Assembly: GCA_000004695.1 (NCBI GenBank)
Contig: CM000150.2
Coordinates: forward strand, 3,104,001 to 3,168,000
Reading direction: 5' to 3'
DNA: 64,000 nt
From: Dictyostelium discoideum
Lineage: Eukaryota
Shown: positions 55,757 through 61,853 of the stretch, piece by piece
How the letters are laid out: every line of letters begins with the position of its first letter
How positions within the stretch are numbered: position 1 is the stretch's first letter
Translations under genes and position numbers: made by a program
Notes under the pieces: model-generated
Seen by the model: the letters and a program-made list of their open reading frames with translations, nothing else
Told to the model about the DNA's origin: nothing
Database searches by the model: none

Positions 55757-57048
55757 TTAAAGCTCTAAAAAGTTTTTTTCAACCAAAATTTCATTATTAT
55801 CATTATTATTAATGTTATTATTAATGTTATTATTATGTACAGTATTTGATTGATTATTTGGTATCGCGTTAATTGAATCTATATCGATCACAATATTTTC
55901 TATGTTATTGTTACCATTATTTCTATTATTGTTATTATTATTTCTATTATTATTATTATTATTACTATTATTATTATTATTATTATTATTATTATTATTA
56001 TTATTATTATTATTATTATTATTGTTACTATTAATATTAATATTAATATTACTATTACTATTACTATTACTATTATTATTATTATTATTATTATTATTAT
56101 TATTATTATTATTATTATTATTATTATTATTATTATTATTATTATTATTATTATTATTATTATTATTATTATTATTATTACTAATAATATTATTATTACT
56201 ATTAATATTATTATTAATATTATTATTGTTAAAATTATTTATATCATCATTTGGATTATTAATATTAATACGATTAATTTGAAAAGGTTTATCATCACCA
56301 CCAGGGGTAACAATTTCTTCAGTATTATTAATTGGGAAATCAACAATTATTTCTTTTAAATTTATTTTGAGTTGACCAAAAAAAAATTTTCTATTGTGAT
56401 CTTCATGAAAAAGTGTTATGAACGATAAACCTGGATATTTTATGTGAAGTTTTTCGAAATAATTTTCAATCTTTTTTGAATTCTGAAAAAAAAAAAAAAA
56501 AAAAAAAAAAAAAAAAAAAAAAAAATATTATTATTAGAATTTGTGAATATCGAGCAAGATATTTTTTTTTTTTTTGAAAGAAAATGATTATCGTAAAAAA
56601 TTAGACTTACTTTTTTTGTGGACTTTGTTTGGAATAAATTAATAACCCATGTTGATAATATAAATAAAAATGTTGGAATGATAACAATAAAAAAGTAGGC
56701 AACATCTGCTTTGAAATAGAATAAAAAAAACAAATTTATAGCATGTAATAACACAGCCATTATTATATTTACAATGTGAATTATTTTATATTTATTTGAG
56801 GGTTCATTATATTCATTTGCTTTATTAACTACCTTTTCCAAAAAATCCTCTTTACTTATACAATATCGTATTTCATTTGGATAGAATGGAACAAATAAAT
56901 CGCCAAAGGCTTGTTTATTTAAATATAATTTATCTCTACCTTCATCAACTATATTATCTATTGCTATTTTCTCTTGTTTAATTTTATTTCCATATTGATA
57001 ATCATCTCTATCACCTTCACCACCAATTGTTTCTATACTTTCCATCAT
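55757..57048 (-). CDS. Family member A (about 387 aa): a 2-TM small membrane protein with an extremely long poly-N C-terminal tail encoded by about 400 bp of (AAT)n. Exons 56611..57048 and 55757..56482; intron 56483..56610 (GTAAGT donor).
   Basis: ORF 56440..57048 extends with exon 2 (NSKKIENYFEKLHIKYPGLSFITLFHED...). The frame was checked through the AAT repeat to the TAA at 55757-55759. The intron position, immediately after the TM hairpin, is shared with the other family members. Confidence 0.55.
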
Positions 57049-58115
57049 TTTATTTATTTTTATTTATTTTTTATTTTTTTATATTTTTTATATTTGTTTA
57101 ATTTTTTAATATTTTATACAAATTATATTAATTTAATTGGGTTTTTTTTTTTTTTTTTTTTTTTTTTTGATATTTTATTTTTAATTTATATAAATTTGTT
57201 CATCTATTTTTTTATTATTATTATTTTTTTTATTTTTTTTTATTTTTTTTTTTTTAATTATTTAAACTAATTTTTATTTTTATTTTTATTTTTTGTATTT
57301 TTTTTATTATTTATTAATTATTTATATATTTATTTATTTATTTTTATTTATTTATTTTATTTATTGATTTATTTTTTTTTTTTTTTTTTTTTGTTAAAGC
57401 CTACAAATATTGTTATCTAATTTTATTGGGTGATATATTTTGTTCTGGGTTTGGTTTGGTTTGATTTGGTTTGATTTGATTTGATAACAAAACAAAAAAA
57501 AAAAAAAAAATAAAAAAAATAAAAAAAAAAAAATTAAAAAAAAAAAAAAAAATAAAAATAAAAAAAAAAAAAAGATACCCTGATTCCAAAAAACAAGTCT
57601 CTGACTTTAGGGAAATTTTTTTTTTTAGAAATTGAAAAAAAAGTGTGATATTTTTATTTATTTTATTTATGGAATGATAACAGTTTACAATTTCGTTAAT
57701 GAATTTTATTTTATAAAATTTTTTATAAATTTTTTTTTTTTTAATATTTTTAATATTTTTTTTTCGAAAAAGAAGTTCTTGGTGATTTAAGATACATATA
57801 TAAAATTTTAAAAATAATTTAATTAATTTTATTTTTTTTTTTTTTTATTTTTTTTTTTTTTATTTTCCAGAAATTATGATTTAAAATTTTTTTTTAAAAA
57901 AAAAAAAATCATTTAAGATATTTTTCCCTTATTAATATTAATGAAGTTTTTTTTTTTTTTTTATTTTTTTAAAAATTTTTTGAATAAAAGAGAAAAAAAA
58001 CTATTTTTGATTTATTTTTTTTTTCTATTTTATTTTTTTATATTTTTTCATTTTTTTTTTTTTTTTTGTAGATTTTTATTTTTATTTTTTTTTTTTATTT
58101 TTTTTTTTTAAGTTC

Positions 58116-59141
58116 TTAAGAGAACAATTTATCGACAGAAGGATGAGAGGTTAGCCTATCATTTGTTGATTTGTTTTCAATTTTATTGTGGTCAACATAA
58201 ATATATACTACAGGATGAATATGAATACGAGGGAATTTTATTGTAATTTTTTCAAAGTATCCCCACTCTCCACTATAATATGAAAATGATAAATTACTAA
58301 ATCTATTACTTAAAACTTCACAATAATCTTCCATATTCTTTGGGCACTAATAATAATAATAATAAAGAAAATTTTAAAATGTTAATAATTAATTTTTTTT
58401 TTTTTTTTTTTTTTTTTTTTTTTTTTTTTTTTATTATTAAAAAAAATAATTAATACATACAGAAACATATCTAATATAAGATGTTATTAAATAAAATATT
58501 AAAAAAATAATTGACATGCTTAATGGTAATAAAAATCTAATTGAAAGTTGAGCATTTTCTTTTGATTTATTATGATGAGCATGAGCATGACTATGTTTTC
58601 CCTTTGCTCCAAAATTATTATTATTTTTATTATTATTATTTTCATTTTGAATATCAGTTGTTAAAAATAAAACTAATGATAACATAATTGTAATCATTGT
58701 TAATAATAAAGTTACTTTAATTAATCTATTATATATAAAAAATTCCTTTTCATAATAGTGATTTATTTCATCAACAACTTCATAAAATCTTGACATTGGT
58801 AATATTGTAGGAGGTATTGAACTTTCATTATCAGTCGTTGAAAATAAACCATTTTCACGCTTTCTTAATACTATTTTATCCCTTTGAAATGGGTCAATTA
58901 TATTTATTAATTGATGGGATTGAGTTTGATGATTATTATCTTTATTATTATTACTACTATTATAATTATTATTTTGTTGTTGTTGTTGTTGTTGGTATTG
59001 TTGTTGATAAAATTGTTGTAATTGTGGTTGAATTATGAAATCCAAATTTTCATTTTTAAAACTGTATCCATATTCAAAATTATATTGAAATTCTTGGTTA
59101 AAAGTGGAATCGTTATTATCTCCATTGTTATTACTATTCAT
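58116..59141 (-). CDS. Family member B (about 303 aa). Exons 58461..59141 and 58116..58346; intron 58347..58460 (GTATGT donor).
   Basis: ORFs 58437..59141 and 58116..58334 are joined in frame as ...SYIRYVS/CPKNMEDYCEVLSNRF.... It has a Q/N-rich N-terminus, a hydrophobic hairpin (VTLLLTMITIMLSLVLFL ... LLPLSMSIIFLIFYLI) and a conserved C-terminal exon. Confidence 0.55.
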
Positions 59142-59746: not shown

Positions 59747-60674
59747 TTACAATATTTGGAATTTCTCAGAGTTTTGATTGTTATTAATATTGATTGGAGG
59801 TGATAATGATGGTACTTGTATTGTGACAATAATTTCTTCACATTTTGAATTATAGCTACCAAATAAACCAATTTGAGAGAATCTAGTTTTTTTGTTTTTA
59901 ATTTCATATTTTATTTTACCATCCTCACTGTAATTATTTTCTAAAGTTTTATATCTCTCTTTAATTGAATTCTTATCCTATTTATATATTAATTAATTAT
60001 TAATAGAGTTAAAAATATATTTCTATAAATAGTTTTTTTTTTTTTTTTTTTTTTTTTTTAAATAAAATTACGTTTGAAATTTTAGCAACTATAATTGCAA
60101 TTAATAATAGTAAAGCAATAGCACCAATACCATATAAAATATAAGTTGAATAAATTGCTTGACCTAATCCAATTATTACACTTGCGGCAGCAATGAAACC
60201 GAGTGAAAGTATTGATAAGAAAATTATTTGTTTTATAAAATCAGATTTAGTGTAACAAGCGACATTATTTAATTCAGTTATAAATCCACAATATTTTTCA
60301 TATGTTACCCAACCTTCAAGTACACTTGGAAATATATCATTAAATTTATCACCTTTTGGTTTTTTTAATTTAATTACAATATTTTTATCATCATTATTAT
60401 CTTCAACAATCTCTAATTGTGGATTATATCTTAATGATTCAATTTCAATGCTATTATTATTATTGCTTTCTATTAAAGATGATGGTGGAGGTAGTGATGT
60501 TGTACTCTTATTTAATGATATAAAATCATTATTAATATGATGTTGTTGTTGATGATGATGTTCGGAGTGGTTGTTATTGTTATTGTTGTGATGGGTTGGT
60601 TGTGGTGGGATGGAGTCTGAAGATTTATCAAGTGAGTTTATATTATTTTCATTATAAGTATAGTTATTGTACAT
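59747..60674 (-). CDS. Family member C (about 277 aa). Exons 60072..60674 and 59747..59977; intron 59978..60071 (GTAATT donor).
   Basis: ORF 60009..60674 (…FLSILSLGFIAAASVIIGLGQAIYSTYILYGIGAIALLLLIAIIVAKISN) is joined to exon 2 (DKNSIKERYKTLENNYSEDGKIKYEIK...). Phase and stop position were checked. Confidence 0.5.
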
Positions 60675-60917
60675 TTGGGTACTACTTTTTATTTACGATA
60701 TAGATATCGCCTCAAAAAAAAAAATAATATTTCAAATTTTTTTTTTTTTATTTTTTTTTTTTTTTTTTTTTTTTTTTTTTTCAGGGGAAAGGACAAAAAA
60801 GATATTTTTTTATTGTTTCAATTTTTTTATTTTTAAAATTTTTATATTTACAATTTACGAATGGTTTTTATTATTTTTTTTTTTTAAAAATATTATTATA
60901 ATTATTATTTATATTAT

Positions 60918-61853
60918 TTACAATTGATAGTTTGTCATTGGTTGAATTTGTTGTTTGTAACATTGATATTCATTTGGATTATGAAACACATAGGCAGTTC
61001 TAATATAGGTTGGGTATTCAATTATTAATGAAGTTTGGTTATATTCAAATTCTCCATCACCTTTTTCTTTCTTCTCAAAGACACCTTTAAAAATTAATGG
61101 ATTGTATTTTTGACTTAATACACCAAAAAAGTTTTCATATCCTTGTTCAATACTCTATAAAAATATATATATGTATATTAATATATTTTATAAATTATTT
61201 TTATGTTTATTTTTTTATTTTTTTTATTTTATTCTATTTTTTTTCTTTATACATACAATTTTAATTTCAGTATTTTTGGTAAAAAAGAAATATAATACTT
61301 TTGAAATTAATGCAATTAAAAATAATAATACACTAACTACTACAGCTGCCCTATATAATTTAGCGATTATAAAAAATACTAATATTGAAATAAAACAAGC
61401 CAAGAATATCCAATCAAAAACTTTAAATTTAATTCTATTTTTAAATGATGAAAATGATGATTTTTCAAATAATGCTTCATTGGAAATATTATTTATTAAA
61501 TCAATAACTTCAATATATTCTTGTGGATTTATGTATGGCGTTAATTCACCATAATAAACATTATTATCAAACAATAATGTTTTTTTACTTTTATTTAATA
61601 CCAATACATTATTTAATTGTTGTTGTTGTTGTTGTTGTTGATTTTGTGCTTGGATTTGATAGACTTGTGAAGTTGGTTGATGATTTGTTTTTGAGAGTGG
61701 TTGTGATGGTAGTGGTGGTACTGATTGTGAAATTGTACCATAATTAACATTTATATTTCTTTGTGATTTGTTTAATAATAATGGAATATTTAAAATTACA
61801 TCACTTTCGCCACTATTTATATTTTGGTTATATGTATTAATATTAGTGTTCAT
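60918..61853 (-). CDS. Family member D (about 277 aa). Exons 61257..61853 and 60918..61154; intron 61155..61256 (GTATGT donor).
   Basis: ORF 61224..61853 ends at a canonical donor right after ...FTKNTEIKI. Exon 2 (SIEQGYENFFGVLSQKYNPLIFKGVFEKKEKGDGEFEYN...) follows a tttttatag acceptor. It contains the PQEYIEVIDLINN motif shared with the 5.1 kb paralog. Confidence 0.55.

Follow-up and report, generated by a model that had tools for sequence, protein, structure and literature searches.

Five paralogous two-pass membrane protein genes of Dictyostelium discoideum and their probable distant kinship with Erf4/GOLGA7

A stretch of 64,000 nucleotides from Dictyostelium discoideum (contig CM000150.2, positions 3,104,001 to 3,168,000; hereafter the window, in whose numbering coordinates are given) carries four head-to-tail genes on the minus strand, here called D, C, B and A, and a fifth gene, E, on the plus strand some 50 kb away. 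All five encode small proteins with a hydrophobic hairpin. The locus raises the question of whether these genes form a single family, which known proteins are related to it, and what its members might do. To our knowledge, few DHHC palmitoyltransferases have a described accessory subunit, and the characterised ones (Erf4 and GCP16/GOLGA7) are peripheral membrane proteins. In this study, we report that the five genes are almost certainly real and paralogous, and that the family to which they belong is likely to share ancestry with Erf4/GOLGA7. The probable distant named relative, the presence of a true transmembrane (TM) hairpin unlike that of the relative, and the wider copy number and taxonomic range of the family are new here. 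A search of the literature for this family, including its gene identifiers and any Dictyostelium link to Erf4, GOLGA7 or DHHC proteins, returned nothing.

Gene models, shared layout and paralogy

Explicit two-exon models were built from the minus strand at 55500-62100 and from the plus strand at 4800-6300. They are as follows.

60918-61853, minus strand: gene D, 277 amino acids (aa); exon 1 61853-61257, exon 2 61154-60918; phase-0 intron 61155-61256; motif PQEYIEVIDLINN; TM hairpin at about 61272-61433
59747-60674, minus strand: gene C, 277 aa; exon 1 60674-60072, exon 2 59977-59747; phase-0 intron 59978-60071; TM hairpin at about 60078-60242
58116-59141, minus strand: gene B (DDB_G0269622), 303 aa; exon 1 59141-58461, exon 2 58346-58116; phase-0 intron 58347-58460; TM hairpin at about 58473-58727
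55757-57048, minus strand: gene A, 387 aa; exon 1 57048-56611, exon 2 56482-55757; phase-0 intron 56483-56610; TM hairpin at about 56629-56787
55905-56239, minus strand: (AAT)n / (TTATTA)n tract coding for the poly-Asn tail of gene A, located with Tandem Repeats Finder
5107-5977, plus strand: gene E, 252 aa; exon 1 5107-5538, exon 2 5651-5977; phase-0 intron 5539-5650; motif TQEYIYLINRINN at about 5308-5346; TM hairpin at about 5359-5526

Every model has a GT..AG intron of 94-128 bp in phase 0 and a coding sequence whose length is divisible by three. For B the model is identical to the annotated DDB_G0269622 (P0008), and for E to a D. discoideum protein already annotated (P0001); a further D. 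discoideum assembly has an annotated 387-aa product, the same length as that of gene A. An original prediction made from the window alone had proposed the array of four and the inverted fifth copy; both are present, and its coordinates were exact. A sixth copy of the family was searched for in the 64-kb window and none was found.

The same prediction had claimed that the intron position is conserved, and this was confirmed. The intron lies six codons upstream of the exon-2 motif E-x-[YF] in E, D and C and five codons upstream of it in B and A; all five D. firmibasis orthologues share this position, and the D. purpureum relative P0140 has a single phase-0 intron in exactly the alignment column of that of E. 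A predicted protein of the fungus Paraglomus occultum (P0150, L004:3001-3935) has three introns, the second of which is in phase 0 and lies between TM helix 2 and the next helix. It is offset from the dictyostelid intron by four alignment columns, in a gapped region, and is suggestive only of a possible shared position.

All five proteins contain a pair of hydrophobic stretches, whose 19-residue Kyte-Doolittle peaks are 2.2-2.9, so that the two-helix hairpin proposed for every copy was borne out by hydropathy. In gene B the two helices are separated by a loop of about 37 residues rich in Asn, His and Lys, and since the bilayer could not accommodate such a loop, the helices of B should be fully membrane-spanning. 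The loop (window 58540-58650; GAKGKHSHAHAHHNKSKEN), rich in His, Asn and Lys, is kept as a His-rich loop in D. firmibasis and D. dimigraforme, and P0134, the orthologue from D. purpureum, lacks it. The loop could bind metal on the lumenal side.

Other features that had been attributed to the family hold in part. A Q/N-rich N-terminus, described as shared, is found in D, C and B and is absent from A and E. The poly-Asn tail that A was said to have acquired is present, and the D. firmibasis orthologue of A (336 aa) carries one too; the (AAT)n tract that encodes it measures 335 bp (88% matches in Tandem Repeats Finder) rather than about 400 bp. A second-exon domain had also been proposed for all copies. 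By hidden Markov model (HMM) comparison, exon 2 gave a significant match for D and E and a marginal one for B; for C and A it fell short of significance when taken alone.

Pairwise BLASTP among the five proteins gave a single convincing match, C-E at an E-value of 5.6e-7, with all other pairs above 0.04. These scores are close to noise, and paralogy is therefore not readable from the sequences by eye. Group profiles, in which each gene was pooled with its own orthologues, were compared by hhalign and gave co-linear, nominally significant matches for E-C (8e-7), E-D (3e-4), E-B (1.7e-3), D-C (1.8e-3) and D-A (2.4e-3). The strongest pairwise link to E is thus that of C, and the signal is located in the soluble parts, outside the TM hairpin. 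When HMMs were built with one orthologue group left out, each omitted exon 1 was found among the 907 six-frame open reading frames (ORFs) of the window with E-values of 6e-16 to 2.6e-6. An HMM made from 14 distant relatives only placed the five exon-1 ORFs at ranks 1-5 of the same 907. These profile tests confirm a common ancestry of the five.

The arrangement of the genes is conserved in D. firmibasis. The four-gene array lies there between the same neighbours, an FCH/RhoGAP gene and an amidohydrolase gene, its products being of 278 (D), 308 (C), 299 (B) and 336 aa (A), and the orthologue of E is found on the same chromosome, about 46 kb from the array and in the opposite orientation. The arrangement is therefore older than the split of the two species. 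The ratio of non-synonymous to synonymous substitution rates (dN/dS, Nei-Gojobori method) between D. discoideum and D. firmibasis was 0.12 for D, 0.35 for C, 0.31 for B, 0.24 for A and 0.21 for E, the ratio being lowest over the hairpin and the soluble core and falling to 0.02 for the C-terminal soluble part of A. All five are coding genes under purifying selection. The array, the inverted copy and the introns kept in D. firmibasis, together with this selection and the profile tests, uphold the earlier view of an old, locally expanded family. Gene C evolves fastest of the five. Its N-terminal soluble element (60243-60386) has a dN/dS of 0.92 against D. firmibasis, as compared with 0.12-0.32 in the other four genes; in this element, the part most like Erf4, constraint is relaxed or selection is diversifying.

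Relatives outside the window and the link to Erf4/GOLGA7

An exhaustive HMMER search of 1.84 billion representative sequences with the family profile yielded just 25 proteins at E-values of 1e-3 or less, with the same layout as the family. At least eight are from D. purpureum (P0134-P0138, P0140, P0142 and P0154). The others include proteins of the rotifer Adineta steineri (P0147), the fungi Paraglomus occultum (P0150) and Globomyces pollinis-pini (P0144) and the protist Cantina marsupialis (P0152), as well as sequences from environmental assemblies. Those of D. purpureum, Adineta, Paraglomus, Globomyces and Cantina are all annotated only as 'hypothetical' or 'transmembrane' proteins and have in common with the five genes the motif, a hairpin of TM length and a C-terminal element of the form y...g..F ... 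I-E-x-P. One protein from the search, P0149, is probably a false positive, a bacterial two-TM protein (CyanoTRADDas_TM), and was left out. The family thus extends beyond the five genes and beyond Dictyostelium, with more than five members in dictyostelids, and is ancient and patchily distributed in eukaryotes.

Two environmental relatives (P0141, 356 aa, and P0155, 380 aa) contain two full motif-hairpin-C-terminal modules in each chain, and the module can therefore be internally duplicated. In D. firmibasis, four more members (372, 299, 191 and 280 aa) stand in tandem at L005:150-6620, upstream of the E orthologue (10001-10846) and on the same strand; the corresponding position of the D. discoideum window is occupied by a polyketide-synthase fragment. 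Locus-tag numbers in other assemblies of the D. discoideum group suggest further copies just past the edge of the window, at 2-3 and at about 21 genes further on than E.

The original prediction had not recognised the proteins as any named family. A probable distant named relative does exist, the Erf4/GOLGA7 family (PF10256), and was met in Pfam, in a profile search of the PDB and in hhalign comparisons. With the untrimmed proteins, PF10256 matched E (E-value 3e-5) and A (8e-4) over the motif and the first helix, below the gathering score. Once the low-complexity tails were trimmed, all 13 members (the five genes and their orthologues) matched it, with a best E-value of 2.5e-5, and no other Pfam family was consistent among them. 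The bit scores were 24.4-24.7 for E, 19.9 for A, 14.6 for D, 13.8 for B and 13.4 for C, E being the most Erf4-like of the five genes. In a wider set, consisting of the relatives from the exhaustive search and E, 15 of the 24 proteins matched PF10256, the best E-value being 9.8e-6 and still below threshold. Other Pfam matches (DUF2207_C, DUF4079, SUR7, tetraspanin and others) differed between members, were confined to the TM region and were dismissed as compositional.

The same family was met in the opposite direction. A family profile enriched with distant members (A6) was searched against 177,635 distinct PDB sequences, and its top match was human GOLGA7/GCP16 (8hf3_B) with an E-value of 2.8e-4; the next was an unrelated G-protein-coupled receptor at 0.058. 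A profile of the five sequences alone (A1) returned only TM-driven noise from the PDB sequences, GOLGA7 emerging only after enrichment. Comparison of the family alignment with a GOLGA7 alignment by hhalign gave a probability of 84% (E-value 7.8e-6), rising to 94% (1.1e-7) for the N-terminal soluble element alone. A relaxed alignment with GOLGA7 remained co-linear over 119 columns, passing the hairpin and reaching the last strand ('I-x-I'). These results make it likely that the family and Erf4/GOLGA7 descend from a common ancestor, and the homology would then extend over the whole domain.

The likeness can be described element by element. GOLGA7/GCP16 (8HF3 chain B) resembles the family in its N-terminal pattern F-x-T-x-FP-x-EL...I...F.E.I..LNN and in the series of strand, helix, hydrophobic helix pair, helix and two strands, within a small domain of about 130-160 residues. 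Conservation between GCP16 and the family is best in the first cytosolic helix and in the stretch just before it. Yeast Erf4/Shr5, the partner of the Ras palmitoyltransferase Erf2, has by its published description the GCP16 core, with two membrane-inserted helices and a three-stranded sheet, and differs in having an additional N-terminal segment, two additional strands and no TM helix. It was absent from the PDB search with the family profile at E-values of 10 or less. An Acanthamoeba 'Erf4 domain containing protein' carries an integral-membrane Gene Ontology term and is a lead only to a possible TM-bearing intermediate.

Predicted structure, possible function and rival explanations

An AlphaFold2 model of E, made from a 23-sequence alignment, had a mean predicted local distance difference test score (pLDDT) of 92.1 and a predicted template modelling score of 0.77. 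Its elements are strand 2-9, helices 29-40, 47-74 and 79-121, and strands 128-137 and 142-154; an earlier model, based on a shallow alignment and with a pLDDT of 68, had its elements in this order too. According to the cryo-electron microscopy (cryo-EM) study of DHHC9-GCP16 and Erf2-Erf4, the accessory proteins have no TM helix, and two of their helices dip into the membrane. The published layout is beta1'-alpha1'-two membrane-inserted helices-alpha4'-beta2'-beta3', with a cytosolic helix on each side of the inserted pair and a three-stranded sheet to which the N-terminal part gives one strand and the C-terminal part two. The order of elements in the model of E is the same as this published order, a comparison of order with description only.

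The proposed anatomy starts with a cytosolic N-terminal tail, often of low complexity, that would lead into strand beta1, and after it a cytosolic helix would bear the motif F-x-x-x-[FY]P-x-x-L...I-x-x-x-[FY]...I..IN. Two TM-length helices would then form a hairpin with a short lumenal loop (long in B), and be followed by a second cytosolic helix (E-x-[YF]..L...[YF]) and a pair of strands with I-x-[FY]-P at their end, which may pair with beta1. With the hairpin so placed, both soluble halves would lie on the cytosolic face, and the topology is predicted to be N-in/C-in.

The cryo-EM work also shows how GCP16 meets its enzyme. The second of its membrane-inserted helices touches DHHC9 at TM2 and TM3, its cytosolic helices form a groove for the polyproline helix of DHHC9, and both GCP16 and Erf4 stabilise the enzyme rather than join in catalysis. 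Since the first cytosolic helix is the element best conserved with GCP16, we propose that the family proteins are hairpin-anchored platforms for a multi-pass membrane partner. Each paralogue would bind and stabilise such a partner, most probably a DHHC-type S-acyltransferase, by helix-helix contacts of the hairpin within the bilayer and by the cytosolic alpha/beta platform, and the tandem expansion may supply partner-specific or stage-specific versions. Taken as a whole, the reading that the five genes are constrained paralogues in a two-pass membrane family distantly related to Erf4/GOLGA7, each stabilising a partner that is probably of the DHHC type, falls just short of an even chance in our estimation. 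Action together with DHHC enzymes, which is suggested by analogy, we hold to be somewhat doubtful. It is unlikely, though worth stating, that the proteins constitute an ancient, unrecognised integral-membrane branch of the Erf4/GCP16 superfamily, spread over Amoebozoa, early-diverging fungi, bdelloid rotifers and a protist, whose members would serve as dedicated, paralogue-specific regulatory subunits of DHHC S-acyltransferases and whose dictyostelid tandem expansions would diversify the control of S-acylation in growth and development.

Several results weigh against this placement, or against the function drawn from it. No member reached the PF10256 gathering score of 29.3 bits, the best being 24.7, and the significant similarity to GOLGA7 is limited to about 40 columns. 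The C-terminal element is co-linear with that of GOLGA7 but has a P of only about 0.1 when taken alone; the GOLGA7 profile was low in diversity, since the search with the human protein gave vertebrate orthologues only, and the power of the C-terminal comparison was limited accordingly. Foldseek searches with the moderate- and the high-confidence models did not retrieve GCP16 or Erf4, the best E-values being 2.2 and 1.1 to unrelated folds. All this would be expected if the five genes represented a two-TM family unrelated to Erf4/GOLGA7, in which some 40 N-terminal residues came to look alike by chance or convergence and the shared order of elements were coincidental. Against such a coincidence, searches from Pfam to the family and from the family profile to the PDB meet at the same family and the same region, the alignment with GOLGA7 stays co-linear via the hairpin to the last strand, and the hydrophobic hairpin occupies an equivalent position in the same series of elements. 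We therefore consider an unrelated origin rather improbable.

Other observations also stand against the main reading. GOLGA7/GCP16 and Erf4 have no TM helix, whereas the family proteins have two: the maximum 19-residue Kyte-Doolittle value of human GOLGA7 is 1.41, below the TM criterion, against 2.2-2.9 in the five genes, and the helices of the model are of about 28 residues or more. The GCP16 hairpin is short, Cys-rich and S-acylated. A further difference is that the dictyostelid proteins have long low-complexity tails. The R-D-Y loop that follows beta1' of GCP16, in which R16 and Y18 contact the zinc fingers of DHHC9, aligns with ERGQDG in E, NKSKKT in D, KKPKGD in C, RKRENG in B and NKQAFG in A; a basic residue is often present and D-Y never, so the loop is not conserved in the five genes. 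No DHHC gene was found in the window or in the syntenic loci that were fetched. It may be, then, that the proteins retain the fold and ancestry of Erf4 with a diverged function, as membrane-anchored adaptors or scaffolds for non-DHHC partners such as multi-pass enzymes of the endoplasmic reticulum or Golgi, trafficking factors or developmental complexes. The lack of conservation of the zinc-finger-contacting residues and the conversion of the hairpin into two full TM helices are in keeping with this, as are the absence of a linked DHHC gene and the very different tails and loops of the paralogues (A with its poly-Asn tail, B with a lumenal loop rich in His, and D, C and B with Q/N-rich N-termini). 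The best-conserved element is, however, the helix that forms part of the GCP16 groove for the DHHC9 polyproline helix, and every functionally characterised relative is a DHHC partner. A diverged function is accordingly a minority possibility in our judgement, though one to be taken seriously. That the models themselves are wrong, or the loci decaying, with D and C being one gene or some copies pseudogenes, is very improbable. An automatic annotation of another D. discoideum assembly (L001:7297-9399, equivalent to window 61845-59747) joins D and C into a 557-aa product. D nevertheless ends in an in-frame stop and C starts from an ATG of its own, with an A/T-rich spacer of 243 bp between them. 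The two genes are annotated separately, and with the same ends, in D. firmibasis and D. dimigraforme (D of 278 aa and 292 aa, the latter being P0133, with the same C-terminus; C of 308 aa), and all five ORFs are intact, at dN/dS values of 0.12-0.35.

Should the proposed TM-hairpin branch of Erf4/GCP16 be real, the known repertoire of DHHC regulators would be larger, there would be a hint as to how the membrane-inserted hairpin of GCP16 evolved, and Dictyostelium, with its tractable genetics, would gain candidate genes for the specificity of S-acylation. Should the link to Erf4 be wrong, the genes would still form a conserved, uncharacterised family with a fixed intron, of value for annotation and of little surprise.

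Surroundings of the genes in the window

Features of the window that are unrelated to the family are listed below.

156-4214, plus strand: polyketide synthase, C-terminal part (ketoreductase, acyl carrier protein and reductase domains)
15127-23607, minus strand: BEACH/WD40 protein
46646-47839, plus strand: SdrD_B-domain protein
51978-53129, plus strand: M20 peptidase
53203-54495, minus strand: amidohydrolase

No tRNA genes were found in the window. At 34001-36000 there is a GC skew of -0.55 with an AT skew of +0.32, within a long RhoGEF-domain ORF (32926-37488), and this skew presumably reflects a biased low-complexity coding tract.

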